This document shows, in pieces, positions 2,722 through 41,209 of a DNA stretch of 52,961 bases (the first letter of the stretch is position 1; every line of letters starts with the position of its first letter). Under the pieces are notes generated by a model. It did not search any database, was not told the DNA's origin, and saw nothing but the letters and a program-made list of their open reading frames with translations. Source of the stretch: an uncultured Bacteroidales bacterium (lineage in GTDB: Bacteria > Bacteroidota > Bacteroidia > Bacteroidales > CAIWKO01); NCBI GenBank assembly GCA_964567775.1, contig CAZMPB010000002.1, positions 1,376 through 54,336 of the forward strand, given 5' to 3'. The translations under genes and the position numbers were made by a program.

Positions 2722-2756
2722 TTTTTGTCCTCCATTTTAAAATGTTATTTTATGCT

Positions 2757-2764
2757 CAAAAATA
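2757..2764 (-). promoter_or_regulatory. Candidate Bacteroidota -7 box (TAnnTTTG) for the LamG gene
   Basis: The minus strand reads TATTTTTG about 36 nt upstream of ATG 2721. A GGAGG lies at 2729-2733, 7 nt before the ATG. Confidence 0.35.
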
Positions 2765-2793
2765 ATTTAAACATTTATTACATCATTTATGAG

Positions 2794-2844
2794 ATAACAA
2801 ACAGGTTTGAAAAAGGCATGAACAGTATTCAATAAATAACAAAC
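2794..2844 (-). promoter_or_regulatory. Pair of perfect 9-bp direct repeats (GTTTGTTAT on the minus strand), a candidate response-regulator site
   Basis: 'ataacaaac' occurs at 2794-2802 and 2836-2844, with 42 bp between starts. The pair lies between the LytTR regulator stop and the LamG promoter box. Confidence 0.3.
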
Positions 2845-2866
2845 CTTTATCGGGCAGAAACAAAAA

Positions 2867-3613: not shown

Positions 3614-3614
3614 A

Positions 3615-12213: not shown

Positions 12214-12317
12214 AAAAAAATTTTATCCGTGTAAAAGTAATTTTTTTTTAAAAAGCACGGTTATATAAAGTCAAATTACTAATTTCGTCGATTAATTGTA
12301 AAACAAATATTAAAACT

Positions 12318-15300: not shown

Positions 15301-15431
15301 AGGCCCTGATGTCGTATTCGGATAAGTACGGGCAGAAACAAGAAGGGAAAAGATACCGCGAAATGCTCATGAAATACGTCCCGATGGCGCAACCCGGATC
15401 TGGTGGTGAGGGCGAACCCGGACAACAATAA
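12318..15431 (+). CDS. DUF2723-family large polytopic membrane protein (putative glycosyltransferase-like)
   Basis: 'EPT.SWWDCGEYI....KLEVGHPPGAPLFQ', about 11 TM segments, and a large soluble C-terminal TPR-like region. The ORF is 1037 aa. Confidence 0.8.
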   Translation: MNILKNFKILNNILGWMVFIVASSVYLLTMEPTASWWDCGEYISTAFKLEVGHPPGAPLFQLMGRFFTLFAGNDVTKVAMMVNSMSAILSGFAILFLFWSITAIAKKLFVKSNSYDLTTPQIFIVLGAGLVGALAYTFTDSFWFSAVEGEVYATSAFFTALVFWAILKWEVAADEKYANRWIVFIAFMMGLSIGVHLLNLLCIPAMTMLYYFRKGKQSKKNFVLALILSVIILGVVQSGIIPWTVKLAGYFELFFVNTAGMPFNSGTIIYFVLLIGLITFGLIYSKKRGKTILNTVILSFTFIIIGYSSFLMLVVRANANPPINENAPKDALTLLTYLNRDQYGDWPVLYGQFFNTKVIDSKEGAYNYIKGKDKYIPTTRKISYKYDPNGCGLFPRMWSEQERHIKAYKAWTGTKGKGKPTFGENLTFFFRNQIGNQYLRYFMWNFVGRQNDIQGFGIDEAGNRDVTNGNWISGIKFIDAARLGNQDQLTEKMLSNKGRNTYYFLPLLLGLAGLIFHFWKSKKDAFVVTLLFLLTGFAIIIYLNPTPYQPRERDYAYAGSFYAFAIWIGLGVVALYHFLSKKIPQMVSVIIATVACLLLVPAIMATQNWDDHNRSDKYACRDYAKNYLASCAPNAILITNGDNDTFPLWYVQEVEGFRTDVRVVNFTLASGDWYIHQLFNKIYESEPLPFTIPTDKYTAGTNDFVPYYEKDPNNVWDLKKMINFINSDKEDSKVQLQDKRKVSFMPTKNLSLRVDSAKVCNNGTVPRYLADQVVKAITWKVKKNTLYKNDLMLLDLIATNNWERPIYFASPSSVDDFINISDYCFLEGCVYRFLPVKGDSRRGGVLTDESYNCFMNKFAYGNLNDPKVYVDKESYGMSLYLRNNFARIAQGMIAEGKKDKALKVLNKGVELIPDRVAPYDLYMIGYGELYFNAGDSAKGKEIFSIVGDIYDQNLTYYQSVDPKTFDKNVAFSLNGVEQSAGFFGEDVQQGLQVLQALMSYSDKYGQKQEGKRYREMLMKYVPMAQPGSGGEGEPGQQ

Positions 15432-15445
15432 AATAATAAATTTGA

Positions 15446-15480
15446 AAAGGTCATCTGCACTAAAAACAGATGACTTTTTC
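15446..15480 (+). terminator. Intrinsic terminator after the DUF2723 gene
   Basis: Stem GGTCATCTG / CAGATGAC with a 9-nt loop, followed by TTTTT. Confidence 0.6.
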
Positions 15481-15498
15481 ATTTAACGACTAATCATT

Positions 15499-16179
15499 AT
15501 GCTGAATAAAAAAAATATTCTTGGGATAACCTGCTCCCTGATCATGTTATCTTCCTTTGCCCAGAAAACAGGCTGCATCGAAGGAAACTGCAAAGATGGC
15601 ACAGGAACCTATGCCTATGCTAACGGGAACAGGTATGAAGGCGAATTTAAAAATTATATGCTCAACGGAACCGGAACATTTACTTTTGCTACGGGTACAT
15701 GGGAAGGATGTAAATACACCGGCGAATGGAAAAATAATCTGATGAGCGGTACAGGAATTTTTTATTATGCCAACGGCGATAAATATGAAGGACAATTTGA
15801 AAAAAACAAATTGAACGGAACCGGCACATACACCTATAAAAATGGCGATGTTTATACCGGAGAATGGTCAGACAACAAATGCAGCGGTAAGGGCACTTTT
15901 AATTATGCCGACGGCGAATACAAAGGCTGCGTTTACACCGGGGACTGGAAAAACAGCAAGATGAACGGACAGGGAGTTTTTACCTGTGAAAACGGGAAAA
16001 AATACACGGGTCATTTAAAAAACAACATGAAAGATGGCGAGGGATTGCTTGTTTTTCCTGATGGTTCAATATACGAAGGCATGTTTGGTGAAAACAAATT
16101 TAATGGCGAAGGCTGTTATACCTACACTTCGGGCAAAAAAGTCTGCGGAAAGTGGAAAAACAATGAACTTCAAAAATAA
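15499..16179 (+). CDS. Secreted MORN-repeat protein
   Basis: Signal peptide followed by about 8 repeats of 'Y.GE(W/F)KN....G.G'. Confidence 0.8.
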   Translation: MLNKKNILGITCSLIMLSSFAQKTGCIEGNCKDGTGTYAYANGNRYEGEFKNYMLNGTGTFTFATGTWEGCKYTGEWKNNLMSGTGIFYYANGDKYEGQFEKNKLNGTGTYTYKNGDVYTGEWSDNKCSGKGTFNYADGEYKGCVYTGDWKNSKMNGQGVFTCENGKKYTGHLKNNMKDGEGLLVFPDGSIYEGMFGENKFNGEGCYTYTSGKKVCGKWKNNELQK

Positions 16180-25775: not shown

Positions 25776-26846
25776 CTAAATGTTTTTTCGCAAAATATTA
25801 TCCGTGAGGTCTGATTCTTTGTGGTTTTCTGTATTAGGAATTTTAGGAAACGCTTTTGATTGTTCATCATTCACTACCGATTTTTCTAATTTAGTGATTG
25901 TTGGGAAATCAATTATTGGTGTAGATTGGGCTATTTTAATTTTTTTTTCTGCAATTTCTGTATATTTTTTCATTAACTCAATGCCAATAAAATTTCTTTT
26001 TGTTTCGATAGCAGCCACAGCAGTTGTGCCACTCCCAAGAAATGGGTCAAGTACAATGTCACCTTCGTCAGAATAAAGGCGAATAACACGTTTTGCTAGA
26101 TTTATTGGAAACATAGCCGGATGTTCATCATTCGCGCGAACACTAGGTATTTCCCATATTTGCCGATACCCCCATTCTTTCCACTCTTCTGCAGATAGAC
26201 GTTCTCGGTTTACTACATACTCTCCCGGTTTCCAAAAAACAAATAAATATTCTGTTTCGCTCACAGCTTTTAATGTGTTTGTTGTCCACTTACTATTTGC
26301 CCAAGCAGGATCTTTTTTCCATATACGCACGTCATATAAATATAGTCCTGCTTCGTAAGCATATTGCTCAAGATTTCCTCCAACAAGTTTGACATGTGTG
26401 CCTGTTGCATAGCGCCCTCCGCGAATATTGTTGCCATTTAAACGTCTGTCAATAGTTTGCTCACTACAATTTAAAAGTTCGGCTAATTGATTTCTATTAA
26501 ACCCAGGATTCTCCTTTTTTGCTTTAAGTACCATTTCTTTAGTAACGCCACATTTTCTATTAGAAGGATTTAATCCCATAATTCGTGGCATTTCTTCGTT
26601 TTGAAAAGAGAGAATATCTGCAATATTTATAACTAAAAATCCACCAGGCTTTAGTATTGTATAATGTAGAGATATTACCGTTTTCAACTTACCTTGCCAC
26701 GACTCGTATGATTCGCTAATTTCGTATTCTTTTCCGAGAAAATAAGGTGGAGACCAAAATGAAAGTGCCAAAGAGTCAGGTGCGATACGTTTCATCAGTT
26801 CGCAAGAATCTCCACAATATACTTTATTTATTTTCAATGTACTCAT
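25776..26846 (-). CDS. Beta-class DNA methyltransferase, probably N4-cytosine (SPPY), with an internal helix-turn-helix segment
   Basis: Motif IV 'FWSPPY' lies near the N-terminus and motif I 'LDPFLGSGTT' near the C-terminus. An HTH-like 'RNQLAELLNCSEQTIDRRL' lies between them. The gene has a 4-nt overlap with the upstream endonuclease gene. Confidence 0.85.
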   Translation of the reverse strand: MSTLKINKVYCGDSCELMKRIAPDSLALSFWSPPYFLGKEYEISESYESWQGKLKTVISLHYTILKPGGFLVINIADILSFQNEEMPRIMGLNPSNRKCGVTKEMVLKAKKENPGFNRNQLAELLNCSEQTIDRRLNGNNIRGGRYATGTHVKLVGGNLEQYAYEAGLYLYDVRIWKKDPAWANSKWTTNTLKAVSETEYLFVFWKPGEYVVNRERLSAEEWKEWGYRQIWEIPSVRANDEHPAMFPINLAKRVIRLYSDEGDIVLDPFLGSGTTAVAAIETKRNFIGIELMKKYTEIAEKKIKIAQSTPIIDFPTITKLEKSVVNDEQSKAFPKIPNTENHKESDLTDNILRKNI

Positions 26847-27736
26847 ACATCATTGCAATTAACTACATTTATGCGCCATGGGGCAATCTTTTGTAAAATG
26901 TCGAAAGAGACACGAGCACGTATTTTTCTCAAATCTTTTGTTTTATCATCTTTTCCGGGGAAGAATAAATCGGGGTATAGGTTAAGATAATTAGGGTTTT
27001 TTGTGAGAAGCAAGCCGTTGGGAATTGAGGCTATTTTTATTTTTTCAAGAGGTTGACCTGTAGTTATTCCTTCGTTTGAAATCATTTTATAGACAGGCTT
27101 TATTACAAAAGTTACTAAAGGCGCAAGAGTTTTGTCGCTTAAGATATATACCGGAGAAAGAGAACATAAAAAATCATGTTTGGCAATCTTTCCTGTTGCT
27201 ACAATTGGGTCATTTATAACTCCGCCCTCTTTTATCTTCCATATGCCGGAACCCGATATTTGATATGGGGACATTACAGCATGGTTAAAGTCGTCGCGTG
27301 GTCCTGCCGATTTTATGTCAATAAAAACCCAAACGGAATCTGTTATACCTAGTATCCTTTTAATTCGTTCGCTAGAAATAATGCATCTACTGTCAGATCC
27401 TGATGGTAAGCCCGAGTCTTTTATTCCAAAATTACTCGAAAAATATCTGGATAATTTGTTTCCAAAAACATGCTCCCCAACTTCTATCCATGGAAATTGG
27501 TCGCCAACTGGTGAACGTCCTCTGTCTAACGGTGTATAGTTTTTCCAAAATGGATATAAATACGAAGCTTCATTATAATCTCGTTCAATTTCGGGTAATT
27601 GCAAATCAATAAAATGAAGAATCTCTGCCGTTACAAATTGTTCTATTTTTACTAGTTTTTGGTAGTTTTCCGTATAATAAGCAACCGCTTTTTTGTACGA
27701 TGAGAATTGATTATCTATATGTTTTTTGAACATCAC
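26843..27736 (-). CDS. Type II restriction endonuclease, probably BglI-like PD-(D/E)XK
   Basis: 297 aa. Candidate catalytic residues are D115 ('GSD') and D140-I-K142 ('VFIDIKS'). This closely matches my recollection of BglI (299 aa; D116, D142, K144). The gene is co-oriented and translationally coupled with the methyltransferase. Confidence 0.6.
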   Translation of the reverse strand: MMFKKHIDNQFSSYKKAVAYYTENYQKLVKIEQFVTAEILHFIDLQLPEIERDYNEASYLYPFWKNYTPLDRGRSPVGDQFPWIEVGEHVFGNKLSRYFSSNFGIKDSGLPSGSDSRCIISSERIKRILGITDSVWVFIDIKSAGPRDDFNHAVMSPYQISGSGIWKIKEGGVINDPIVATGKIAKHDFLCSLSPVYILSDKTLAPLVTFVIKPVYKMISNEGITTGQPLEKIKIASIPNGLLLTKNPNYLNLYPDLFFPGKDDKTKDLRKIRARVSFDILQKIAPWRINVVNCNDV

Positions 27737-28034: not shown

Positions 28035-28472
28035 CTACTTTTCTGATTTCTGTTCAATATCATCCTCAAGCTTTTCATCAAGCTTCAGATTTTGTATCTG
28101 CCAGGTCTGATTGGGTTTGTAAAGGATAAACGTGATCTTGATTGGCTGCCGGTCGTATCGTAGCATATAGTTAAACAACATGTAGTTTTCAGAATACACG
28201 ACCTTTTCAATAAGCTCATATCCGTAATACTGACCGATCTTCGCAATAAATTCTTTGGTCTGCATTTTCAGGTTATCAATATAAGCCTTATAATTATTCA
28301 TCCATTTATTGTTTGCGAATATATAGCCAATGGCTGTATCTGAACTTTGTTCCACATAAAGTTTAAAAAAATGTGCTGTAATATCTTCAGGTTTCTCCTG
28401 TGCAAACACAAAATTATTTTTAATTGAAATACACGCTATTACAAGCAATGCGGCAATAATTTTTACTTTCAT
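28035..28472 (-). CDS. Hypothetical small secreted protein
   Basis: 145 aa with signal peptide 'MKVKIIAALLVIACISIKNNFVFAQ'. I recognised no family. Confidence 0.5.
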   Translation of the reverse strand: MKVKIIAALLVIACISIKNNFVFAQEKPEDITAHFFKLYVEQSSDTAIGYIFANNKWMNNYKAYIDNLKMQTKEFIAKIGQYYGYELIEKVVYSENYMLFNYMLRYDRQPIKITFILYKPNQTWQIQNLKLDEKLEDDIEQKSEK

Positions 28473-28570: not shown

Positions 28571-28578
28571 TAAATTTG
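28571..28578 (+). promoter_or_regulatory. Candidate -7 box (TAAATTTG) for cassette copy 1
   Basis: Matches TAnnTTTG. Its G lies 44 nt before ATG 28622, the same spacing as in cassette copy 2. Confidence 0.35.
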
Positions 28579-28621
28579 TTTGCTGATAATACCACTATAT
28601 AAATAACGAAATAACAAATAC

Positions 28622-29125
28622 ATGAAAATTAAAATATTTACGCTGCTAATGATTATCGTTTCATTGAATGGCACAGCCCAGACAAGTGAAACAAAAAGCA
28701 AATTTTACAAAGTGACGGTCAACAATATCACACTTGATGTTCCCGAGGGTTTTGAGGCAGTTCAGGGTCAAAACGGTTTTTTGCATAAGGGAAGCGCATC
28801 CACTTTGATGATCGAAGAAATACCAAATTCCCCTTTTAGCTTTTCTGCAGACCATTTTAATTCGGAAAATCTGGAAAAAGACGGTGCAAAACTCATCAGC
28901 AAACAGGATATTAAGACATCTTCAGGACAGGATGGCGTATTATATACGCTTACCGTTTCGCTAAAAAACAAAGACAACACCTCCTCTGTTGATTTTGAAC
29001 GCCTGGTTTTACTGACAGGGAATGAAACCAAAACAATTTGCGTCGTCGTAAATTATCCTGTTATTATTAAAAAACTTATTCAGGAACCCCTGAAAACGTC
29101 CATGTTATCAATTATTATCAACTAA
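28622..29125 (+). CDS. Small secreted protein, cassette partner (paralog of 36170-36718)
   Basis: 167 aa with a signal peptide. It aligns by eye with the 182-aa ORF ('GFLHKGSASTLMIEEIP', 'FERLVLLTGNETKTICVVVNYPVI'). Confidence 0.6.
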   Translation: MKIKIFTLLMIIVSLNGTAQTSETKSKFYKVTVNNITLDVPEGFEAVQGQNGFLHKGSASTLMIEEIPNSPFSFSADHFNSENLEKDGAKLISKQDIKTSSGQDGVLYTLTVSLKNKDNTSSVDFERLVLLTGNETKTICVVVNYPVIIKKLIQEPLKTSMLSIIIN

Positions 29126-29139
29126 TCAAACCGTTTTGC

Positions 29140-31935
29140 ATGAAAAAAATATATTCTGCTATTGTTTTATTTCTGTTATTATTTCCTGGCTACCTTTTTT
29201 CACAAACCGAAACACAGACGTATAATGTACGGTGGCATACCGAAGCCCAGGACATGTGGGGGCCTAACGGCTCAGCGTTTACCATGGACACATCGATCAA
29301 CCTTTTCGATGTAAATGAATCCGGCGTCAATACTTTTGGCTCTATTACCAATATTCTGGGCGGCGACTTTGGGGCGCTGCTTACCATCGACTATTGGTTA
29401 AGAATGGGTTCGAACTTCAATATCGACGGGTTCACCACAGGATGGGTCGATGTAAATTACCCGACCATTATCAATCTTACCTATCCCGACAGCATGACGT
29501 TCAATCCGGGACAAACGATTACCATTGCTTCAGATTATCAGGTCGATACGGGGTGGTTTCTGCAAACTCAATTCCCCACTTCAGGCCATATTTCTTTCGA
29601 CTTTTATTTTGGCTTTAACATAAGTGTTGATGCCGAAGTTTGTGTATGGAGTTGTACTAATTTTAATGTTTTTGATATTGGCGTACCCCTTGACACCACA
29701 TTGCTTTTCGATATTTCTGACAGTAACGGGGTGGCTTCTATCACATATCCGTGGTATGATCCCGCCATAGGTTTTTATATGGCGCACGACACTATCCTCC
29801 CCCTGGTCTTCAACAATCTTGGCGGCATCGGCTTGAGCGGCGTGATTACATTGCCATACGTGGAAACCAACGACTATATGCTCTCCAATGATAAATGCCT
29901 GTATGCAAAAGGAGACAGCGCATTCATGTGGTTTGACCTGGATATTCTTACCTTTCTTGGCGCTTTCGACCCATCTCTCGACTCCATCCTTGATATGTTG
30001 AACGGAACGATAGACATAGGGGCCGGCATCACCCTCGATTATAGTTTATTAACGATGAATCTTTTGGTAACAAGTTACATGGTGCAGAATTTCTCGTTTT
30101 GCCCTACTATTTGGGCAAATCTGACTTTCCCTAATAATTATTCGTATACCGAAACCATTCCGGGTTTAGGAACAGTGGTGAACTCCGGAAATGCAAACAG
30201 CATCACTTTCCAGGTCGACCACAACCTGAACTTAGACCTTCCGTGCGACATGCCAAGCAGTATGCCGGCTTATGTACGATTCTCGATGGACAATGATTTC
30301 AGAAACCATACTTTTGATAGTCTCACATTCACTTTTGTACTGACAGCGTTTACTTTTACGCTGAACCTACCGTCATTCCCCATAATGGGAGACTTCTGCA
30401 TCCCTGAATATTGCATCAACATGCCGGTTCCCTGTCCGGAAAAATCTTTAGGAAATGATACCTGCTGGCAGTTGGTATGCTTCCCGGAGATCTGCGCTCC
30501 GGCTACTCAACAACCCGATCTCAGTTATACCATAGGTCCTTTGATCAATTTGAGCATCCCATTGGGCCACATAGAATTTGACTGGTTCGACGACACATGG
30601 GAATTGGGGGAATTTCTGCCCGACAACAGCGGTATAGGTTTGTTTGATACCGTTATGACGAGTCAGTTGATCATGTATCCCAACGATCCTTTCTACACCG
30701 AAATTGAAGGACCTAATGTAATCTGCTTTGGCGACACCGATGCCGTAATCACAGTTTTTGCACATAACGGAACACCGCCGTATTCCTACGTTTGGAACAC
30801 AGGTCATTCTGTTACGACCAACGCAACGGCAGACAGCATCACGGTCGGTGTCGGAAACTATATGGTTACCGTTACCGATGTCAACGGTTGCTCTTCTACT
30901 GAACAGCTAATCATATATTATGTGAACCCGGAAATTTTCATTAATCTGACAGGTACAGACATAAACTGCGCCGGAGACAGTACCGGAATGATCGTGGCAA
31001 ATGTCTGGGGCGGCACGCCGGGCTATACTTACGACTGGGTTCCTTTCGGAGGCAACAGCGATACAGCAAGCAACCTGCCTCACGGCACGTATATTCTGAA
31101 TGTTATTGACTCCGTGGATTGTCCCAAATCAGACACTATTACCCTGATAGAACTGCATCCTTTGCCTCCGGTAAATTTCATTGCCGATGTTACAGAAGGC
31201 TGTGAGCCTTTAGTTGTAAACTTCAGCGAATTAAGCCCTGACCAGGGTCAGACCTACGAGTGGAATTATTTCGACAGCACTGCACACGATACCATCAAAA
31301 ACCCAACCCATATTTATCAAAACTATGGCACCTATGATGTTTCTTGCACCGTGGTTTCAATTTACGGATGCGACAGCACCATGTTCAGGCCGGCTTACAT
31401 CAATGTTTACCCGAAACCGGTTGCCGAATTCACCCTGGCGCCAAGTGTCGTAAAGAAAACAGAATACCCGACATGGACCGTGTTCTTCGATGACCAGTCT
31501 ACATTTGCGTATTCATGGAATTGGGATTTTAATGATCCCGGATCCGGATCTGGCAATACCTCAGATTTAGAATCGCCGTCACATTCCTTTACAGGAGAAA
31601 ATATTTATTATGTTTCGATGATCGTAACTTCCGACCATGGATGTAAAGATACGGTGGTTCATAAGGTGGAAGTTATTGACGATGTCCTTAAGTATGAAAA
31701 CGTATTTACCCCCAATAATGACGGGTTCAATGATGTTTTTAAAATCGAAAAGGTCGAGAAATATCCCGAAAACAAACTCACCATTTTTAACCGTTGGGGA
31801 AACAAAGTATTTGAGGCTGACCATTACCGGAATACATGGAATGCCGAAGGTATACCCGATGGCGTTTACTATTATATTTTCGATGCAGGGAATGGAAGTA
31901 AAACGGTCGAAGGAACAATTACTATTATCAGATAA
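29140..31935 (+). CDS. T9SS type-B sorting-domain cargo protein: unrecognised N-domain + SprB-type repeats + PKD + gliding-motility C-terminal domain
   Basis: Signal peptide; 'CFGDTDAVITV.A.NGTPPYSYVW' and 'C.GDSTG.I.A.V.GGTPGYTYDW'; PKD 'GCEPL.V.F...S......Y.W.F'; C-terminus 'FTPNNDGFNDVF....V......L.IFNRWGNKVFE'. Confidence 0.85.
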   Translation: MKKIYSAIVLFLLLFPGYLFSQTETQTYNVRWHTEAQDMWGPNGSAFTMDTSINLFDVNESGVNTFGSITNILGGDFGALLTIDYWLRMGSNFNIDGFTTGWVDVNYPTIINLTYPDSMTFNPGQTITIASDYQVDTGWFLQTQFPTSGHISFDFYFGFNISVDAEVCVWSCTNFNVFDIGVPLDTTLLFDISDSNGVASITYPWYDPAIGFYMAHDTILPLVFNNLGGIGLSGVITLPYVETNDYMLSNDKCLYAKGDSAFMWFDLDILTFLGAFDPSLDSILDMLNGTIDIGAGITLDYSLLTMNLLVTSYMVQNFSFCPTIWANLTFPNNYSYTETIPGLGTVVNSGNANSITFQVDHNLNLDLPCDMPSSMPAYVRFSMDNDFRNHTFDSLTFTFVLTAFTFTLNLPSFPIMGDFCIPEYCINMPVPCPEKSLGNDTCWQLVCFPEICAPATQQPDLSYTIGPLINLSIPLGHIEFDWFDDTWELGEFLPDNSGIGLFDTVMTSQLIMYPNDPFYTEIEGPNVICFGDTDAVITVFAHNGTPPYSYVWNTGHSVTTNATADSITVGVGNYMVTVTDVNGCSSTEQLIIYYVNPEIFINLTGTDINCAGDSTGMIVANVWGGTPGYTYDWVPFGGNSDTASNLPHGTYILNVIDSVDCPKSDTITLIELHPLPPVNFIADVTEGCEPLVVNFSELSPDQGQTYEWNYFDSTAHDTIKNPTHIYQNYGTYDVSCTVVSIYGCDSTMFRPAYINVYPKPVAEFTLAPSVVKKTEYPTWTVFFDDQSTFAYSWNWDFNDPGSGSGNTSDLESPSHSFTGENIYYVSMIVTSDHGCKDTVVHKVEVIDDVLKYENVFTPNNDGFNDVFKIEKVEKYPENKLTIFNRWGNKVFEADHYRNTWNAEGIPDGVYYYIFDAGNGSKTVEGTITIIR

Positions 31936-31953
31936 AATATTTTTATAATTATT

Positions 31954-34900
31954 ATGAAACTTGTATTAAGAAAAGCTTTTTTAAACCTTGCTGTGATCTG
32001 TTTTTTTCTGACCTTATGTTCTCAATCACATGCCTCCACCCAGAATGCCAGCGGACCGCTTACTGTTACCACAACATGGTCTACAGATACCGTTAAAATT
32101 ATCGGGGATTTCACTGTCAACAGCGGCGTTACGCTTACAATTAATTCCGGCACTATAGTAATTTTCCTGGGCCATTATAAATTCAATGTCAATGGGCGCC
32201 TCCTTGCAAACGGATTAGAAAATGATATAATCCGTTTTACCATCAACGACACCACCGGTTTTTCCACGATGACTTCAAACAGCGGTGGTTGGTATGGTAT
32301 CAGGTTTGTGAACAATACAAGTGCCGATACATCCAAACTTGTTTATTGCCATTTTTCTTACGGAAAAGCTAATGGAACCGGCGATGATGCCAATGGCGGG
32401 GCCATTTATGTTAATAATTTTTCAAAACTAAAAATTGTAAATTGTATCTTTGATCATAATGCCGCCAAATCAAACGGAGGAGGGATATACGTGCGGAAAT
32501 CAAGCATCGTGGTAAGGTTTAATGAATTTACCAACAACAAAGGTGTAAGCGGCGGGGGATTATATACCAGTTCCGGTGCGCCATCGATCGACAACAATGC
32601 TTTCATTTCCAATTTTGCGAGCAACGGAGGGGGAGGATTATTTTTGGCCGACACCACTTTAGCAAAAGCTCACGGAAACCTTATCAGGCACAATATGGGA
32701 TTGTTGGGCGGCGGTGTGGGTTGTTACCTCGCAAGCCCTGCTTTGAATAACAACACCATTGTTTTCAACAAGGCTACACATGGTGGCGCTTTGATATGCA
32801 TCAACTCAAGCCCTACTTTTAACAATGACATTTTATACAGCAACACAGCATCCGGTATCGGTAATCAGGTTGCACTGATGACCGACCTGTGCGACCCGAA
32901 TTTTTATTACTGTAATATTCAGGGCGGATATGCCGCTTTTGGCATACAAGGTACCCAGACTTATACAGGTCAATATCTTAACAATTTAGCAGTACCGCCT
33001 CAATTTGAAGACACGGTACTGCATAATTACCTGATAAAATTCACATCCCCGTGTAAAGATGCCGGAACACCCGATACAACAGGGCTTAAACTCCTGAAAA
33101 TAGATATTGCCAAAAAGCCGCGTATCAGTATGGGGCGGATCGATATAGGCGCCTATGAACGCGAGCAGGTAGCCAGTGTTTGCGGAAATATTACTCAAAA
33201 TACCTTGTGGAATGCCGATACGGTAAAACTCACCTGTAATATTGTCATAAATAATGGCGTTACCCTGACGATAAATCCTAAAGTATATGTTGAATCGCAA
33301 GGTCATTACTCCATAACAGTCAACGGAAGAATTGTGGCCAACGCCAATGCGACTGACAGCATTATTTTTACATCTAAAAACACGAGTACCGGATGGGCGG
33401 GAATTATCTTTAACAGTACCCCGGCAGGCAACGACACCTCAAAATTCTCGTTTTGCCGCTTTAATTATTCTAAAAACACCTCTCTAAACGGAGGCGCTTT
33501 GAATGTTACTAATTTTTCAAAAATAAAAATCAGTAACTGCTTGTTTAAAAATAACGAAGCTTTGAATGGTGGAGCCATATATGCATATAACTCCTCCATT
33601 TCTGTTTCTAATTCAGGTTTTAGAAATAATACGGCAAACAATTATGGTGCAGCACTCTATTGCGAAACAAATTCCAATTTATCAATAACAAAATGTACTA
33701 TTGATCACAATATCGCCACTGCCGGAGCCGGCATTTATTCCAACCTTTCCATCCCCAATGTCAAATCTTCTGTTTTTTCTAATAATTATGCTCCTGAAGG
33801 CGCCGCATTACTATGTGACTCATCAAATGCCAAAATCATCAACTGCTTGATTATCAATAATACCGCTACAAATGGCGCCGGCATTAAAATATACCGTTCA
33901 AATCCGCAACTCACCAATAATACTATTTCATACAACCTGGCGAATGCTAACGGTGGCGGTTTGTATTTATCACGTTCGACCCCCACCCTGACAAACACTG
34001 TTTTGTACGACAATACGGCCACCACATCCGGAAACCAGGTATATCTTAATGATACGCTGAGTACTCCTGATTTCTACTATTGCGATGTACAGGGAGATAC
34101 TACAGCAATGGGTAAAAACGGATTTACAACGTTTCACGGGATATATCTGAATAATATTGACACCATTCCGGCATTCATGGCACCTCCGGCCGGTGCAGGA
34201 ATTACGTATTCAGGACTATCTTCAAATTGGGCTCTTGATCCTTGCTCTCATCTTTATAACAGAGGAAATACCGATACCACCGGACTAAAACTTCCCACCA
34301 AAGACCTGGACGGAAATGCACGTATCTATGCTAACCGTATTGATATGGGAGCCTACGAATTGATCAAACCATATTTTGTTGTCCAATCAGCACCTGTGGA
34401 CATTTGTGCCGGCGACACAGCCATGTTTAGCGTTTCTGTTGAATCCAGTTTCCCGGTAACCTATTTGTGGCAATACAGCTCAACAGCAGGACTTATATGG
34501 CTTTCCGCCCTAAATGACAATAATGACTCTGTTTATTACATAAATAGCGTCTCATCCGGTCAGAACAATTACTATTACCGCTGTATTATTTCTGCTTCAT
34601 GCACCCAGAACATCATCTCAAATAGTGTTCCTTTGCTTGTTTATCCTCCTACCTCTATAAGCACACAACCCCTTAATGTCAACATTTGCCAGAATGAAAC
34701 TACAAATTTTACAGTTAATGCTGTTGGTTCCACACTCATGTATCAATGGCAACAACAACCCCCTGCAGGTACCTGGACAAATTGCACAGGAACATCTGCC
34801 ACTCAGGCAACCTATACCATTACGAATACTCCTTTCAGTTTAAACGGATATAAATACCATTGCCTGATCACAGGAGATTGCGATCCTGATACAGTAACCA

Positions 34901-35988
34901 TTGATGTTTTACTGACCGTTAAAGCGCTTCCCGCAATCACCAATCAGCCATCAAATCAGAGTGCCTGCCAGGGACAGGATGTCTCGTTCAGTATTACGGC
35001 AACAGGTACGAATATTACTATGCAATGGGAAGAAAGTACGGATGCCGGAGCCTCATGGCACAATGCTCCCGGCGCATCAACTGCCAGCACTTACAGTATA
35101 ATAGGAATAATACCTACAATGAGCGGTAATAGATACCGCTGCATTGTTACAGGAGATTGCCAGCCTCCTGATACGTCCAATATTGTCACGCTTTCGGTGA
35201 ATACAAGCCCTGTTATCACCACACAACCAAGCACCACGCATGTTTGCGTTGCCTCCGACACATCAATAAGCGTTGTCGCATCTGGAGGCAATCTAACCTA
35301 CCAATGGGAAAAGAAAGCGCCATCAGATACGGCATGGTCAAATGCTCCGGGACCAACGGCCGTTTCGGCAGCTTACCAAATAGATAATGCGTCCATGGTC
35401 AATAGCGGAACCTGGTTCAGATGCCGCATACAAAACATTTGTCCGCCGGCAACAGTGTCGGATAGTGTACAACTTTTTGTTCATGCACTACCCACTGCTT
35501 ATCTTGGCCCCGACGATTCGATTTGGCTATACAACGAATCGGTCGTTCTGAATGCCGGCGGTGGCTTTACATCATATCACTGGTCAACAGGAGAAACAAC
35601 ACAGACAATTACAGTTGTCGGGTTAACCGTACAGATCGGCCCGCATATGTACACGGTTACCGTTACGGATAGCTGGGGATGCAGCGCCACCGATAATATT
35701 ACTATTACAGTGTTAGACAACACCGGTATTTCCATAACCGAATCAGAAACAAACATCAATATCTTTCCTAACCCGGTTAATAATCTCCTGTATGTTGATA
35801 TAAAAAATAATCCCAAGCCCGTTGTCGTGAGTATTGCAAACATTGAGGGACAGTTTCTTCTTTCTAATATCTTTGAATTGAATTCCGGGCGCCAGGTAAT
35901 TGATCTATCTGGTTTTTCAAATGGAATTTATGTTATTACTGTTTCGGTGGACGGGAGAATATATAAAGAAAAGATTGTAAAATATTGA
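31954..35988 (+). CDS. Large surface protein: two right-handed beta-helix modules + four Ig-like domains + T9SS type-A sorting domain
   Basis: Repeated 'N.A..GGA(I/L)Y...S.....C.F..N.A' beta-helix turns occur in two modules, each ending 'RID(I/M)GAYE'. Four Ig-like units follow with the pattern 'Y.WQ.......W........Y.I........G..Y.C.(I/V)...C'. The C-terminus is 'NI.IFPNPV.N.L.V......V.I.N..GQ......G.Y.I.V'. Confidence 0.85.
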   Translation: MKLVLRKAFLNLAVICFFLTLCSQSHASTQNASGPLTVTTTWSTDTVKIIGDFTVNSGVTLTINSGTIVIFLGHYKFNVNGRLLANGLENDIIRFTINDTTGFSTMTSNSGGWYGIRFVNNTSADTSKLVYCHFSYGKANGTGDDANGGAIYVNNFSKLKIVNCIFDHNAAKSNGGGIYVRKSSIVVRFNEFTNNKGVSGGGLYTSSGAPSIDNNAFISNFASNGGGGLFLADTTLAKAHGNLIRHNMGLLGGGVGCYLASPALNNNTIVFNKATHGGALICINSSPTFNNDILYSNTASGIGNQVALMTDLCDPNFYYCNIQGGYAAFGIQGTQTYTGQYLNNLAVPPQFEDTVLHNYLIKFTSPCKDAGTPDTTGLKLLKIDIAKKPRISMGRIDIGAYEREQVASVCGNITQNTLWNADTVKLTCNIVINNGVTLTINPKVYVESQGHYSITVNGRIVANANATDSIIFTSKNTSTGWAGIIFNSTPAGNDTSKFSFCRFNYSKNTSLNGGALNVTNFSKIKISNCLFKNNEALNGGAIYAYNSSISVSNSGFRNNTANNYGAALYCETNSNLSITKCTIDHNIATAGAGIYSNLSIPNVKSSVFSNNYAPEGAALLCDSSNAKIINCLIINNTATNGAGIKIYRSNPQLTNNTISYNLANANGGGLYLSRSTPTLTNTVLYDNTATTSGNQVYLNDTLSTPDFYYCDVQGDTTAMGKNGFTTFHGIYLNNIDTIPAFMAPPAGAGITYSGLSSNWALDPCSHLYNRGNTDTTGLKLPTKDLDGNARIYANRIDMGAYELIKPYFVVQSAPVDICAGDTAMFSVSVESSFPVTYLWQYSSTAGLIWLSALNDNNDSVYYINSVSSGQNNYYYRCIISASCTQNIISNSVPLLVYPPTSISTQPLNVNICQNETTNFTVNAVGSTLMYQWQQQPPAGTWTNCTGTSATQATYTITNTPFSLNGYKYHCLITGDCDPDTVTIDVLLTVKALPAITNQPSNQSACQGQDVSFSITATGTNITMQWEESTDAGASWHNAPGASTASTYSIIGIIPTMSGNRYRCIVTGDCQPPDTSNIVTLSVNTSPVITTQPSTTHVCVASDTSISVVASGGNLTYQWEKKAPSDTAWSNAPGPTAVSAAYQIDNASMVNSGTWFRCRIQNICPPATVSDSVQLFVHALPTAYLGPDDSIWLYNESVVLNAGGGFTSYHWSTGETTQTITVVGLTVQIGPHMYTVTVTDSWGCSATDNITITVLDNTGISITESETNINIFPNPVNNLLYVDIKNNPKPVVVSIANIEGQFLLSNIFELNSGRQVIDLSGFSNGIYVITVSVDGRIYKEKIVKY

Positions 35989-36118
35989 TTTATTACACAA
36001 AAAATAATTTAATAAAACCAAACATTATTGTATTTTTTTTCGTTTAAGAATTGTTGAACATGATAAATTCTGATTTTATATTTAAGGAGTTTTTTTTCTT
36101 ATTTCGTGAATTTTAGTC

Positions 36119-36126
36119 TATATTTG
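36119..36126 (+). promoter_or_regulatory. Candidate -7 box (TATATTTG) for cassette copy 2
   Basis: Matches TAnnTTTG. Its G lies 44 nt before ATG 36170. Confidence 0.35.
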
Positions 36127-36169
36127 TACTATCTGTTTTTATGATAATTATCAATTTTTACTTTTACCC

Positions 36170-36718
36170 ATGAATAAAATAACCGGCAACATTTTAAAAA
36201 CAATTTTGGCAGTTGCCTGTTTTTGTTGCTCCTATGGTTCATTTTCACAGGGGTTCAGTCAGGCACAAAAAGATTCCGTTCTGAATGCTTACGTTACTAT
36301 ACCCAACAGTGATATCAGCATGGTTCCGCCTGCATATTTCAAGGCATTCGTTAAGGATGGCAAATTTGGTTTCATGCATGATGGCGCAGGGGCTTCTATT
36401 TCTATAGAGGAAATTATAGGAACACCCTATCCTATTGTGGTTCAGTATATGTCAAAAGAATACCTGGAAACACAAAATGTAAAGTTTATCACTAAAGAAA
36501 ATATTCAGACAAGGGACAAAAAAGATGCGGTACTTTACCTGGTAAGCTTTTCAGTCAAAAGTAAAGACGGGATCAAAGAATTACAATACGAACGATTGAT
36601 GCTGTTTACCGGAGACTATAACCGGACGATCTGGATAAGTGCAAATTATCCGATAGTCGCCCGAAAGATGCTTTTTGTCACGTTAAGGGAAAGTTTATTA
36701 TCAGTGAAATTTGATTAA
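36170..36718 (+). CDS. Small secreted protein, cassette partner (paralog of 28622-29125)
   Basis: 182 aa with a signal peptide or lipobox-like 'LAVACFCC'. Shares 'GFMHDGAGASISIEEII' and 'YERLMLFTGDYNRTIWISANYPIV'. Confidence 0.6.
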   Translation: MNKITGNILKTILAVACFCCSYGSFSQGFSQAQKDSVLNAYVTIPNSDISMVPPAYFKAFVKDGKFGFMHDGAGASISIEEIIGTPYPIVVQYMSKEYLETQNVKFITKENIQTRDKKDAVLYLVSFSVKSKDGIKELQYERLMLFTGDYNRTIWISANYPIVARKMLFVTLRESLLSVKFD

Positions 36719-36733
36719 GCGAAAACACACAAA

Positions 36734-39562
36734 ATGAAAAAAAATATACTTCTCTTTTTCTGTATTCTTCTCCTGATGTCCGGCATTAACGGAAGGGTGT
36801 TTTCGCAGACCCATACCGTAACGCATAATGTCGACTGGGTTACCCATGACCAGAATATGTGGGGGCCTAACGGCAGCCCTTTTACATTAAACATGGATAT
36901 TGAACTGTTCAACATTAGTTTTGGGGATACATCTTCATTTGGCGGAATAACCGATCTGGGCTGGTTAGGACAATGGGGCGCGGTGATCGATCTCGGCACA
37001 TGGCTGGAAGTCGCTTCCGTCTTTAGCATTCATGGGTTCACCACAGGTTCTGTTGATGCGGAATATCCGGTAGAAATCGACCTTACATTTCCCGACAATT
37101 ACACCTTTAACCCCGGCGAATGGATAACGATCAACACGGACTGTTCCGTAGAACCCGGCTGGGATCTCACCACACATTTTCCAACCGCAGGTATTATTCA
37201 GCTCGACTTTTTCTTCGGATTCGGATTAGACATTTCGGCTACGGTATGTTTATACGATTGTTTTACCATGGATATTATCAGCCTGAATTTGCCTACTGAC
37301 TCAATAAATATCTTTTATCTGAACTCGCAGACCGGAGAAGTATCTTATCCTTGCTGGAACGGATTTTTCTTCGCAATATGCCACGATGACATATTGCCGA
37401 TAATAATTTATGACTGGTGGGATATCGGGTTAACCGGATTTATAGACATACCCTATATTGTGACTACCGATTGGTTAGGAACAGACGACTGTGTGTATGC
37501 TCACGGAAGTGATCTCTGGCTCCATCTGAACATTGATATTATTCAGTTATTGTCGGCAATAGCTCAGTTGATACCTCCGCCGGCAGGCCCTATCATATCA
37601 CAGATCTTAGGTTATATGAGTGGCACCTTTGATCTTGGTGGCGGTATAACAATAGACTATACTTTGCTTTCACTCAATTTTGGCCTTGACAGTTATATGG
37701 TTCAGGATTTCACGCTTTGCCCTGATGTGTGGACACGATTATCGTTCCCGACCAGTGTCCCGTATAACATATCCGATCCGGCGAACGGGGATTCAATTGT
37801 TGAATCCGGTGTTGCAGACACCTTCAATATACTTTGCGGCTATGACCTTAATTTTAAATATCCATGCAATGATTATCCTGTTTGGGATATCGGCATCCAG
37901 CATTATCTGACCAACGATTTCACCAATCATACCTGGGACAGTATGGCTTTTTATTTTAATATTACTGCTTTTGAATTTTGGATCAATATACCTTTCAAAG
38001 CCCAGCAGGAAATATACATTCCGGAATATTGTATAGAAGTGCCTGTCCCGTGCCTCGAAAAATCAAACGCTCCCGATACTTGTTGGGATACCATTTGTAC
38101 ACCAGGCATCACCATACCACCTCAAACCCCTCAGCAACCTGACTTTACCATTCATATCGGGCCTTTGATCAATATGACCTGGCCGCTTGGATACATCCCC
38201 ATTACATGGTATGATAACACTTGGCAGCTCGGCGGATGGTCGCCGAATCAGACCGGCATCTTTGACACGATCATGCCCGACGAACAGATCATCCCTAACC
38301 CGCCGATGACTATGAGCGCTGAAATCACCACACAAATCATCTGTTTTGGCGATACCAACGGCGTAATAACCGCTACGGTGGAAAATGGCACCCCTCCTTA
38401 CACTTACATCTGGTCAACAGGCGATTCAACAACAATTAACAGCACAACCAACTCTATCACTAATCTTGCTGCCGGCACCTACTATGTCACTGTTTATGAT
38501 TCTGGGCCCTGTTATTTATACGATACCGTTGAAATACTCAATGTTGACCCGCCTCTTTATATTTCTCTCGGGATAAAACATGTTACTTGTATTACTGGAT
38601 CCGACGGGCAAATTACGGCACATGTTACAGGCGGTACACCGGGATACACATACGTATGGTCACCTATTGGAGGCTATGATTCTACAGCCAGTAACCTGCC
38701 AGCAGGAACATATTGGGTCGTTGCTACCGACCTTCTTGGCTGCACCATAAGCGACACGGCAACACTTATAGAGCTATGGCCATTACCCGAGATCGGCATA
38801 AGGGCTGAGCCCGACAGCGGATGTCAGCCGCTCAAAGTTCAGTTTTATGAAACCACTATTGATTCAGGACAGACCTATGTGTGGGACTACCATGATAACG
38901 GAGCTACAGATTCTGTAAAAAATCCAATACATACTTTTGTTAACGCCGGGACATACGATGTAACAATTTATGTAACTTCCAACCATGGCTGCCTTGATTC
39001 ACTAACCATCGAAGACATGATCACCGTATTCCCCAAACCCAACGCTGACTTTTTGCCAGAACCAAGAGAAACCGACATCCTCGAATCATGGGTGGCCTTT
39101 AACAACTTGTCAGATAACACATTCTGGAGCTACTGGGCTTTAGGCGACGGGGAGTATTCACACGAAACAGAACCTATGCACCATTATGTGGATACCGGGT
39201 ATTTCCATATAGTACTATATATTCAAACTGAGCATGGATGCAGAGATACAGCTTCGGACGATATTTATGTCAAAGAAAGTATTACTTTCTATGCCCCGAA
39301 TGCATTTACACCGAACCGGAACGGACTTAATGAAGAATTTCTTGTAAAAGGAACAGGAATAAATAACAGCACTTTCAATATGATCATTTTCGACCGCTGG
39401 GGAAAAAAGGTGTTTGAATCGTCTGATATTGAAAAAGGCTGGGACGGCAGGATCAATGACGAAACAGTTACTGACCCGGGTGTCTACACATGGGTTGTAA
39501 CATACAGGGATATTACAAAGAAATATCACAAATATTCAGGTTCGGTAATATTAATCAGGTAA
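36734..39562 (+). CDS. T9SS type-B sorting-domain cargo protein, paralog of 29140-31935
   Basis: It has the same architecture and is alignable over its full length ('MWGPNGS', 'IPEYCIEVPVPCLEKS', 'CFGDTNGVITATVENGTPPYTYIW', PKD). The C-terminus is 'APNAFTPNRNGLNEEF....IFDRWGKKVFES...GWDGR'. Confidence 0.85.
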   Translation: MKKNILLFFCILLLMSGINGRVFSQTHTVTHNVDWVTHDQNMWGPNGSPFTLNMDIELFNISFGDTSSFGGITDLGWLGQWGAVIDLGTWLEVASVFSIHGFTTGSVDAEYPVEIDLTFPDNYTFNPGEWITINTDCSVEPGWDLTTHFPTAGIIQLDFFFGFGLDISATVCLYDCFTMDIISLNLPTDSINIFYLNSQTGEVSYPCWNGFFFAICHDDILPIIIYDWWDIGLTGFIDIPYIVTTDWLGTDDCVYAHGSDLWLHLNIDIIQLLSAIAQLIPPPAGPIISQILGYMSGTFDLGGGITIDYTLLSLNFGLDSYMVQDFTLCPDVWTRLSFPTSVPYNISDPANGDSIVESGVADTFNILCGYDLNFKYPCNDYPVWDIGIQHYLTNDFTNHTWDSMAFYFNITAFEFWINIPFKAQQEIYIPEYCIEVPVPCLEKSNAPDTCWDTICTPGITIPPQTPQQPDFTIHIGPLINMTWPLGYIPITWYDNTWQLGGWSPNQTGIFDTIMPDEQIIPNPPMTMSAEITTQIICFGDTNGVITATVENGTPPYTYIWSTGDSTTINSTTNSITNLAAGTYYVTVYDSGPCYLYDTVEILNVDPPLYISLGIKHVTCITGSDGQITAHVTGGTPGYTYVWSPIGGYDSTASNLPAGTYWVVATDLLGCTISDTATLIELWPLPEIGIRAEPDSGCQPLKVQFYETTIDSGQTYVWDYHDNGATDSVKNPIHTFVNAGTYDVTIYVTSNHGCLDSLTIEDMITVFPKPNADFLPEPRETDILESWVAFNNLSDNTFWSYWALGDGEYSHETEPMHHYVDTGYFHIVLYIQTEHGCRDTASDDIYVKESITFYAPNAFTPNRNGLNEEFLVKGTGINNSTFNMIIFDRWGKKVFESSDIEKGWDGRINDETVTDPGVYTWVVTYRDITKKYHKYSGSVILIR

Positions 39563-39567
39563 TTCAA

Positions 39568-39647
39568 ATGTACCGGTGAAAATTGTCAGTGAAAATAATA
39601 ATATTATTTTTGCTGACAATTTTTTTTGTAATCCGGTACATTTTTTG
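39568..39647 (+). terminator. Long nested hairpin terminator after the second cargo gene
   Basis: The outer stem pairs atgtaccgg (39568-76) with ccggtacat (39633-41). The inner stem pairs aaaattgtcag (39579-89) with ctgacaatttt (39613-23). A TTTTTT run follows. Confidence 0.6.
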
Positions 39648-40034: not shown

Positions 40035-40598
40035 TTAACTCCCCCATTTAAACGTTTTTATATCAAAACCAGCAAGCAGCAAAAGCTTGTCTGTTACCGT
40101 ATTTACCAATGCTTCCATATTCTGTGGTTTCGAATAAAATGACGGTGATGCCGGGCATATGCAGGCCCCCGACTGTATAAGTAATTTAAAATTCTCAATA
40201 TGTACAAGATTATAAGGCATCTCACGCACCAGAAGAATCAGCTTTTTACCTTCTTTAAGCATAACGTCAGCGCTACGGGAGATCAGGTCATCTGCATAAC
40301 CGTGGGCTATACGGCTAAGGGTTCCCATGGTGCAGGGGCATATAATCATCATGTCATATCTTGAAGAGCCTGATGCAAAAGGAGCAAAAAAATCTTTATT
40401 ATCATAAACTTTTCCCAAAGGCAGGGTCTCTGTAGTCAACCCCAATTCAAATTCACGGACCTTAATTGCATTTTCAGAGAGGACAATACCAATATCTTCA
40501 ATTTGGTCTTCAATTTTCTTTAACCTGTTGATCAGGTTTTCAGCATATATGGCACCACTAGCGCCAGTGATTCCTATTACAATTTTTTTCCTGATCAT
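40035..40598 (-). CDS. ubiX: Flavin prenyltransferase UbiX
   Basis: 'IVIGITGASGAIYA', 'MIICPCTMGTLS.IA.G'. Confidence 0.9.
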   Translation of the reverse strand: MIRKKIVIGITGASGAIYAENLINRLKKIEDQIEDIGIVLSENAIKVREFELGLTTETLPLGKVYDNKDFFAPFASGSSRYDMMIICPCTMGTLSRIAHGYADDLISRSADVMLKEGKKLILLVREMPYNLVHIENFKLLIQSGACICPASPSFYSKPQNMEALVNTVTDKLLLLAGFDIKTFKWGS

Positions 40599-41209
40599 AT
40601 CTCATAAATTGCAGACAAAGTAATCGTGCTATTGTATTGCCACCTGTCTAAACGCCAACGGGTTTTGGTCTCCGGCTTACGGACCGGCAGAAAAGAATTC
40701 TCAAAACGGATATTTGCTTTGAGATGTTTAATAATATTTATCCCCATACCCACAAATACAGAATAATCAAATTTATTAAACCCCGGACGTTCTGAATCTC
40801 TAACAAGGCCATATTCATCCTTTTCGATATATTGATTTTTCATCAATACCCCAAAAGCGGGTCCGGTTTCAAGGTTAAACCGTTTTGAAAATTGCCATTT
40901 ATAAAGCAAAGCAAGTTCTATATAATGAAGATTTAATTTATAAACTATATAATCGTTAGTCTTCGGATGGGGATTCTTACTACTTCCTTTTAATACGTAG
41001 TAGATCTCAAGTTGTAATGCAGATTTTTCATCAAAACTGTAGTTTGTAAATGCCCCTCCATATGGTCCGGCTTTATTAAACCCTGAGAGCTGATCTCCCG
41101 AGATCTGTGAAGCAGCTATACCCGCAAAAAACCCGCCACCAAATTTTTTTTGTGCAAAAGAACTGGATACCGTTAAAAATAAAAATAATAATGCGACTAG
41201 CTTTTTCAT
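40595..41209 (-). CDS. Small outer-membrane beta-barrel protein (PorT / OMP_b-brl_2-like)
   Basis: Signal peptide, alternating beta-strand pattern, and an aromatic C-terminus 'LSAIYEI'. It has a 4-nt overlap with ubiX. Confidence 0.65.
   Translation of the reverse strand: MKKLVALLFLFLTVSSSFAQKKFGGGFFAGIAASQISGDQLSGFNKAGPYGGAFTNYSFDEKSALQLEIYYVLKGSSKNPHPKTNDYIVYKLNLHYIELALLYKWQFSKRFNLETGPAFGVLMKNQYIEKDEYGLVRDSERPGFNKFDYSVFVGMGINIIKHLKANIRFENSFLPVRKPETKTRWRLDRWQYNSTITLSAIYEI

Follow-up and report, generated by a model that had tools for sequence, protein, structure and literature searches.

In a 52,961-nucleotide (nt) stretch of DNA from an uncultured Bacteroidales bacterium (the window; GenBank assembly GCA_964567775.1, contig CAZMPB010000002.1), we analysed two copies of a cassette in which a gene for a small secreted protein is followed immediately by a gene for a large T9SS (type IX secretion system) cargo protein. 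Homologues of the small gene were found directly upstream of genes encoding the same ~500-amino-acid (aa) N-terminal domain of the cargo (the N-domain) across metagenome-assembled genomes (MAGs) of the Bacteroidota. The small protein carries a signal peptide and is predicted to adopt a PsbP/Mog1/DcrB-type fold. We propose, with a probability of roughly 0.45, that it acts as a cargo-specific periplasmic holdase or escort for the N-domain.

An earlier note, made from the letters of the window alone, had described this duplicated cassette, and its four open reading frames (ORFs) lie where it had placed them. The small proteins, numbered 1 (167 aa) and 2 (182 aa), are paralogues, with 148 residues aligned at 32% identity (E 4e-32) in an alignment that spans both sequence blocks quoted in the note. 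The large proteins (large protein 1, 931 aa; large protein 2, 942 aa) align over their full length at 41% identity and share the architecture read from them at first sight: Pfam placed two SprB, PKD/PKD_4 and CHU_C domains above threshold in both, and the NCBIfam model of the type-B sorting domain, TIGR04131, exceeded its curated threshold in each. For large protein 1, the sorting domain scored 87 bits with CHU_C (cut-off 27; E 7e-25) and 51.5 bits with TIGR04131 (cut-off 35; E 8e-14); the values for large protein 2 were 56.6 bits (cut-off 27) and 43.6 bits (cut-off 35). The short gaps between small and large ORF were likewise borne out, at 14 nt (29126-29139) in cassette 1 and 15 nt (36719-36733) in cassette 2. 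Reading by eye, we recognized candidate Sec signal peptides in large protein 1 (MKKIYSAIVLFLLLFPGYLFS, with QT after the candidate cleavage site) and in large protein 2 (MKKNILLFFCILLLMSGINGRVFS, again followed by QT).

Linkage of the small gene to the cargo N-domain

To follow both genes across genomes, we built three hidden Markov models: one of the small protein, one of the first ~520 aa of the large protein and one of the sorting domain. The small-gene scan covered the window and loci L001 to L069, of which L008 to L069 (62 loci) had been found via the small protein; the N-domain scan covered 72 loci found via the N-domain. Among 81 small ORFs, nearly all that had enough downstream DNA were followed by an ORF that starts with the N-domain (E 1e-120 to 1e-234); for the first small copy of L009, no downstream ORF was called in the scan. 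The spacing between the two ORFs ranged from -31 to +37 nt, with one case at 213 nt, over the about 130 loci of both scans. In the opposite direction, the small gene was directly upstream in 62 of 70 N-domain ORFs. Of the eight exceptions, two lie at contig ends, one is a frameshift fragment and five are genuine (L091, L118, L124, L125 and L130), so that the small gene precedes 62 of ~66 assessable N-domain genes (about 94%). The order of small gene and N-domain gene was also kept in distant clades to which only the profile search extended, namely P0210, P0198 (Fluviicola and a Chitinophagales-like MAG) and P0232, and probably in P0222. For two of the genuine exceptions, L118 and L124, another contig of the same MAG, matched by its accession, has a complete cassette. 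At these two loci a different gene stands in place of the small gene: in L118 (2090-2689) one for a 199-aa protein that ends in GYTF, resembles a small outer-membrane barrel and has no Pfam match, and in L124 (4423-4917) one for a 164-aa protein with a type-A sorting domain.

The other neighbours of the cassette vary from locus to locus, and so does the cargo itself, which measures about 931-944, 1175, 1406-1442 or 1550-1580 aa. As the N-domain and the small gene persist through this variation of the stalk, the constant partner of the small gene is the N-domain and not the type-B sorting domain. The earlier note had taken the small protein for a dedicated partner of this family of type-B cargo. 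Our neighbourhood survey across Bacteroidota MAGs upheld the systematic position of small-gene homologues 5' of the cargo genes (in the neighbourhoods of diverged homologues, a large SprB/PKD/CHU_C gene always came next), and shifted the object of the linkage from the sorting domain to the N-domain.

Many junctions between small and large gene are 2-nt gaps or 4-nt overlaps, an arrangement that indicates translational coupling of the two genes. Distance matrices of the small protein and the N-domain, compared over 86 unique pairs, were correlated (r 0.71, Mantel p 0.001), and the partial correlation with the small protein was 0.33 for the N-domain versus 0.12 for the C-terminal 300 aa. The pairing of paralogue classes has been stable since the duplication.

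Fold, export and composition of the two proteins

We modelled the small protein with AlphaFold2 from a 55-sequence alignment (predicted local distance difference test (pLDDT) 88.5, predicted template-modelling score (pTM) 0.77). The model shows an antiparallel beta-sheet flanked by helices that can be superposed on PsbP, Mog1 and DcrB. Foldseek returned 28 matches in the PDB at E<=1e-3, essentially all of one fold (PsbP, Mog1, EagT6/PA0094, DcrB, Apa and others). The best was PsbP/CyanoP (2xb3; template-modelling (TM) score 0.65 by query (TMq) and 0.70 by target (TMt), E 2e-6); Mog1, BT_1490, DcrB and EagT6/PA0094 (6xrf; E 2.5e-4) were also among the matches. Just above E 1e-3, in the range 2e-3 to 3e-3, followed SciW (2e-3), LpqN and Tsi3 (2.5e-3, TMt 0.63). 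The Eag chaperone structure 6xrr was likewise in the Foldseek output, and the Foldseek probability was 1.00 for PsbP, Mog1, EagT6, DcrB, LpqN and Tsi3. On this model, the small protein has a PsbP/Mog1/DcrB-type fold. The guess from its sequence pattern that it resembled DcrB/DUF1795 or PsbP-like proteins was thus right at the level of fold, and did not extend to membership of a sequence family. Pfam and NCBIfam gave no match for either small protein of the window, none of 55 family members matched Pfam, including DcrB/DUF1795 (PF08786), PsbP (PF01789) and PsbP_2 (PF18933), at E<=1, and a profile of the small protein had one insignificant match only among PDB sequences. The family is large and has no existing model: a profile search of 1.84 billion cluster representatives retrieved 1064 relatives at E<=1e-3, of which 368 reached E<=1e-10, so that at 50% identity it holds about 1,000 clusters. 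Every database name of the small protein reads 'hypothetical protein'. Distant relatives of 300-580 aa with two or three domains (P0185, P0193, P0211, P0224, P0227 and P0233) combine one or two domains of the small-protein type with a C-terminal domain that weakly, below threshold, matches PsbP_2, PsbP or DcrB.

A signal peptide of the signal peptidase I type, with a small residue before the cleavage site and Q after it, was present in 101 of 110 unique small proteins, and the conservation of this Q across the alignment is 90% or more. A T9SS sorting domain was found in none of the small proteins. These features suggest that the small protein is soluble and released into the periplasm via Sec and signal peptidase I. 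A lipoprotein anchor was considered and rejected, as a lipobox-like string occurs in only 4 of the 110 unique proteins and Q is near-invariant after the cleavage site; with neither a lipobox nor a sorting domain nor a beta-barrel, the soluble small protein is unlikely to have the anchor role that the earlier note had listed among its options. Its content of Lys and Arg is ordinary, at 10.2% and 11.5% in small proteins 1 and 2 (about 9-11% in small proteins), like that of the non-secreted proteins of the window. In contrast, all three T9SS cargos of the window are poor in these residues (2.9-5.1%). This difference indirectly suggests that the small protein stays inside the envelope and does not share the extracellular fate of the cargo.

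The N-domain, at positions 29203-30699 and 36797-38300 of the window, comprises ~500 aa and had no match in Pfam (E<=10) or NCBIfam. Residues 1-508, searched against PDB sequences both as a single sequence and as profiles, matched only dynactin, insignificantly (E 0.18). In the AlphaFold2 model (pLDDT 71, pTM 0.53), the domain consists almost entirely of long beta-hairpins, with no helical transmembrane segment past the signal peptide. All Foldseek matches of this model in the PDB and BFVD had TM scores below 0.15, and local hhalign comparisons between segments revealed no internal repeats. Weak matches to perforin, gasdermin and Vip3 are due to the long beta-hairpins, and we did not take them to point to a pore-forming toxin. 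Over 86 pairs, Lys and Arg together make up a mean of 1.1% of the N-domain (range 0.2-4.5%), with a mean net charge of -56, and this depletion could reflect resistance to extracellular proteases or a constraint of the secretion route. The N-domain of large protein 1 has ~15% aromatic residues and 11 Cys, several of which are invariant in the family alignment. As modelled, the N-domain appears to be a novel all-beta domain without known relative. The C-terminal two fifths of the large proteins, by contrast, are SprB repeats, PKD domains and the CHU_C sorting domain. They share their SprB/PKD repeats with SprB-type adhesins and with the grappling-hook protein GhpA, whose repeat region matched the large-protein profile at E 3e-68; this match is confined to the SprB/PKD part, and for the N-terminal 500 aa neither GhpA nor any PDB entry offers a counterpart.

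Candidate roles of the small protein

In the mechanism that we propose, the small protein would reach the periplasm via Sec and signal peptidase I, coupled translation would supply it and its cargo in matched amounts, and in the periplasm it would bind the head of its own cargo, the N-domain. As a holdase or escort, it would keep this hydrophobic, disulfide-rich and possibly self-associating head soluble, monomeric and inert. Holding would end upon engagement of the SprA translocon by the sorting domain, and after export the small protein would remain in the periplasm. A PorP/SprF-type shuttle would handle the sorting domain outside; it is encoded next to the cargo in a few lineages and presumably elsewhere in most.

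The closest parallel comes from the T6SS (type VI secretion system), in which Eag chaperones are encoded just upstream of an effector and bind its N-terminus. The Eag proteins EagT6, EagR1 and SciW (DUF1795/DcrB) share the PsbP/Mog1-like fold with the small protein (EagT6 E 2.5e-4, SciW 2e-3). As with Eag, the small gene stands immediately upstream of the partner gene, and its specificity is toward the N-terminal region of the partner, not toward a generic secretion signal, which in our case follows from gene linkage. Eag chaperones differ in being cytoplasmic and lacking a signal peptide, whereas the small proteins are exported; Eag shields the transmembrane helices of prePAAR for the T6SS, whereas the small protein partners a 500-aa all-beta domain of a T9SS cargo; and, unlike the Eag family, the small proteins are not detected by the Pfam DcrB model. 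PsbP/CyanoP/PPL and Mog1, the best structural matches, are, like the small protein, exported (lumenal or periplasmic) and serve as protein-binding accessory subunits, although no relation to PsbP was found at the sequence level, the context is non-photosynthetic and the partner is a secreted adhesin-like protein. A tentative extension of the proposal, which we find somewhat doubtful, is that the T9SS has cargo-specific periplasmic chaperones and that, as a T9SS counterpart of the Eag-effector pairing, a PsbP/Eag-fold protein was recruited as escort of a single cargo family, whose all-beta head, aggregation-prone or self-reactive, it would keep inert up to the moment of export.

Several points weigh against an escort role. 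As a generic scaffold for protein binding, the PsbP fold also serves in immunity (Tsi3) and in lipoprotein-pathway factors (DcrB). By itself, it does not single out a chaperone. An adjacent small gene is missing for about 5 of 66 N-domain genes, so a partner in cis is no strict requirement. Tight operon linkage alone could yield much of the correlation between the distance matrices without any protein contact. The model of the N-domain is moderately confident, and its need for a holdase is conjecture. Finally, the cassettes seen are all from MAGs.

Alternatively, the N-domain could be a harmful T9SS effector, for instance a membrane-active or lytic one, that the small protein neutralizes in the producer and possibly in its kin. 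Tsi3, the periplasmic immunity protein against the T6SS muramidase Tse3, is among the structural matches and, like DcrB and LpqN, is an envelope protein of this fold that binds a specific partner. The N-domain is encoded in the stretch of the cargo gene next to the small gene, much as toxin-domain regions adjoin immunity genes, a parallel that we draw ourselves; the small proteins diverge faster than the N-domain (mean identity 33% versus 46%), and several diverged cassettes occur per genome (in the window, in L026, and in L001 plus L078). In addition, the N-domain is modelled as long beta-hairpins, and its only Foldseek matches, although very weak, are pore-forming proteins. However, these matches, with TM scores below 0.15, are not meaningful, and no toxin or enzyme domain was found in the N-domain among Pfam and NCBIfam families, PDB sequences, or PDB and BFVD folds. 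Compared with the other matches Tsi3 is a weaker one (E about 3e-3), and the cargo here has no recognizable toxin domain, unlike the partner of Tsi3. Immunity genes, that of Tsi3 included, normally lie downstream of the toxin gene, whereas the small gene lies upstream; the small gene is absent beside ~5 N-domain genes; and the N-domain is a single conserved family over several orders, not a polymorphic toxin set. We regard an immunity or inhibitor function as unlikely, but as the main rival of the escort proposal.

The small protein might also form a stable complex with the folded N-domain in the periplasm, pass the T9SS translocon with it and work on the surface of the cell. The T9SS is established to move folded cargo (PMC10994853), coupled translation suggests a 1:1 complex, and PsbP itself belongs to a larger complex as a stable extrinsic subunit. 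Against such co-export, the Lys and Arg content of the small proteins (9-11%) is unlike that of the cargos of the window and of the N-domain family, which suggests that they do not meet the same fate. We know of no precedent for piggy-back export through the T9SS, a subject at which our literature search was not aimed. Taken together, we regard co-export as improbable.

An equally low probability attaches to the idea that the small protein is merely co-transcribed with the cargo and has an envelope role of its own, such as ligand binding, signalling or maintenance, under the same conditions. Some two-domain relatives do not lie beside such cargo, P0224 adjoining a gene of the EPSP_synthase family and P0193 being from a high-GC organism outside the Bacteroidota-like set, and a few N-domain genes lack the small gene. 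Yet linkage of ~94% in both directions, at 0-40 nt and over several orders while all other neighbours change, the stable pairing of paralogue classes and a partial correlation that is higher for the N-domain than for the C-terminal part all argue against mere co-transcription.

An adjacent gene for a PorP/SprF-like shuttle is typical of type-B cargo, although not obligatory. The earlier note had observed none beside either cassette, and indeed no PorP_SprF domain (PF11751) was found in the ORFs of at least 120 aa in the window, all but one overlapping reading frame having been scanned. A regular expression for the N-terminal PorP/SprF motif gave no match, and Pfam scans of the flanking ORFs were used instead. 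By these, a PorP_SprF gene lies within 8 kb of the cassette in 3 of 62 related loci: in L027, 8 nt downstream of the cargo gene (11919-12938); in L020 (at 12729-15742), 64 nt downstream and followed by a gene for a TPR/PD40 protein; and in L056, ~1 kb downstream on the opposite strand. The TPR/PD40 protein of L020, with 670 aa, resembles a PorE-like component. As L027 and L020 carry operons of small gene, cargo gene and porP/sprF, the small protein adds to the shuttle without replacing it, and the two have distinct roles. In addition, 3 of the 12 type-B cargos of F. johnsoniae are orphans served by the unlinked shuttle Fjoh_1677 (PMC12618676; see also PMC9143113). Orphan type-B cargos being normal (PMC12618676), the lack of an adjacent porP/sprF gene is no signal in itself, and the observation in the earlier note, correct for the window ORFs scanned, makes a weak argument.

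The known shuttles (SprF, Fjoh_3951, Fjoh_1677 and PG1035-PorP) are, like the small protein, encoded by cognate partner genes beside type-B cargo genes, and they are cargo-specific (PMC12618676, PMC9143113). However, PorP/SprF proteins are outer-membrane beta-barrels of ~300 aa, encoded directly downstream of the cargo gene, that recognize the C-terminal sorting domain, whereas the small protein is soluble, is encoded upstream and tracks the N-domain. That the small protein takes over the role of a missing shuttle or anchor, for which the rarity of PorP_SprF genes near the cassettes might speak, is barely tenable, given that it is a soluble alpha/beta domain of ~150 aa with neither a beta-barrel nor a PF11751 match, that its gene follows the N-domain and not the sorting domain, that orphan cargos use unlinked shuttles, and that the operons of L027 and L020 effectively refute it.

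Organization of the locus and wider significance

The features of the locus are collected in Table 1. The two cassettes are separated by a gene for a 1344-aa protein, not mentioned in the earlier note, which begins 18 nt past large protein 1, contains a right-handed beta-helix, Chlamydia PMP repeats, a choice-of-anchor Q domain, immunoglobulin (Ig) domains and a type-A sorting domain, and probably belongs to operon 1, co-transcribed with cassette 1. The array of five genes (small, large, 1344-aa, small, large) was found again in at least eight related Bacteroidales MAGs, down to 59% identity, which indicates that the duplication is old and the arrangement maintained. In locus L026 (1663-10186), two complete cassettes stand back to back in the order small (177 aa), large (1407 aa), small (163 aa) and large, with 4 nt between the first large and the second small gene and without the intervening type-A gene of the window.

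Table 1. Features of the duplicated cassette and its surroundings (positions in the window).
Feature	Position	Strand	Remarks
Type II restriction-modification pair	25776-27736	-	BglI/SfiI-family endonuclease (E 1e-107) and N6/N4 DNA methylase; ~0.9 kb upstream of cassette 1, opposite strand
145-aa ORF	28035-28472	-	Immediately upstream of cassette 1; no family match
TAnnTTTG box TAAATTTG	28571-28578	+	Candidate Bacteroidota -7 promoter element, operon 1
Small protein 1	28622-29125	+	167 aa; signal peptide (cleavage after ...GTA, before Q), then predicted PsbP/Mog1/DcrB-like alpha/beta domain
Large protein 1, whole ORF	29140-31935	+	931 aa
Large protein 1, signal peptide and conserved N-domain	29140-30720	+	aa 1-527; all-beta (predicted), acidic, Lys/Arg-poor, Cys-rich
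Large protein 1, stalk	30721-31689	+	Pfam SprB, PKD_6, PKD_4, PKD; profile matches GhpA repeat region
Large protein 1, type-B T9SS sorting domain and stop codon	31690-31935	+	aa 851-931; CHU_C, TIGR04131
1344-aa beta-helix/PMP-repeat/Ig protein	31954-35988	+	Type-A sorting domain; position kept in related MAGs
TAnnTTTG box TATATTTG	36119-36126	+	Candidate -7 promoter element, operon 2
Small protein 2	36170-36718	+	182 aa; paralogue of small protein 1; signal peptide ending ...SFSQ
Large protein 2	36734-39562	+	942 aa; same N-domain, SprB x2, PKD, type-B sorting domain (aa 854-941)
Hairpin of 20 bp and T run	39578-39624	+	Likely terminator of operon 2, behind large protein 2
OMP_b-brl_2 protein	40595-41209	-	204 aa

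Each cassette is preceded by a TAnnTTTG box whose last G lies 44 nt upstream of the ATG of the small ORF. The earlier note had given this position exactly for both copies; that the offset is the same in both is a coincidence without special meaning. Over the whole window, the motif shows no enrichment (82 matches versus 69 +/- 8 expected). Of 108 unique regions upstream of homologous small genes, 57 contain it, nearly all at 10-59 nt before the start, and a role of the box as the Bacteroidota -7 (sigma-AB-type) promoter element is plausible. The OMP_b-brl_2 protein behind cassette 2 was considered as an outer-membrane partner and rejected, since its gene is convergent, it is not a PF11751 protein and the flanks inspected at other loci carry different genes from one locus to the next. 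No recurring counterpart of this gene, or of the 145-aa ORF upstream of cassette 1, was noticed beside the cassettes of other loci.

A further pair of small genes was seen in locus L001, where two paralogous 154-aa proteins with signal peptides and without a Pfam match (4794-5258 and 1331-1795, both on the minus strand) are each encoded directly upstream of a type-B CHU_C cargo of ~860 aa (2200-4782 and 1-1309, respectively) with a different N-terminal region (PKD/P_proprotein). As remote homologues of the small protein they were rejected (hhalign probability below 3%). There are hints here that private small upstream partners may form a general, overlooked layer of T9SS type-B cargo handling.

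In current models of the T9SS, cargo is selected and handled via its C-terminal sorting domain, the SprA translocon and PorV or PorP/SprF shuttles. Our full-text literature search found no paper that links the T9SS to DUF1795 or PsbP-fold partners, and none that describes a dedicated T9SS cargo chaperone or a cargo-specific periplasmic factor. Secretion-system effectors paired with a cognate PsbP/Eag-fold partner encoded upstream are known already; new here are the periplasmic leg of the T9SS as its setting and a new client domain. The analysis defines two uncharacterized families, the small partner and a Lys/Arg-poor head domain of ~500 aa without known fold relative. Were the small protein to confer immunity, the cassette would encode an effector delivered by the T9SS together with a periplasmic immunity protein, a finding no less notable. 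If it is an escort, the T9SS would gain a new step, private periplasmic escort or neutralization tied to the N-terminal head of a cargo, and two unrelated secretion systems would have put the Eag-type fold to the same use.

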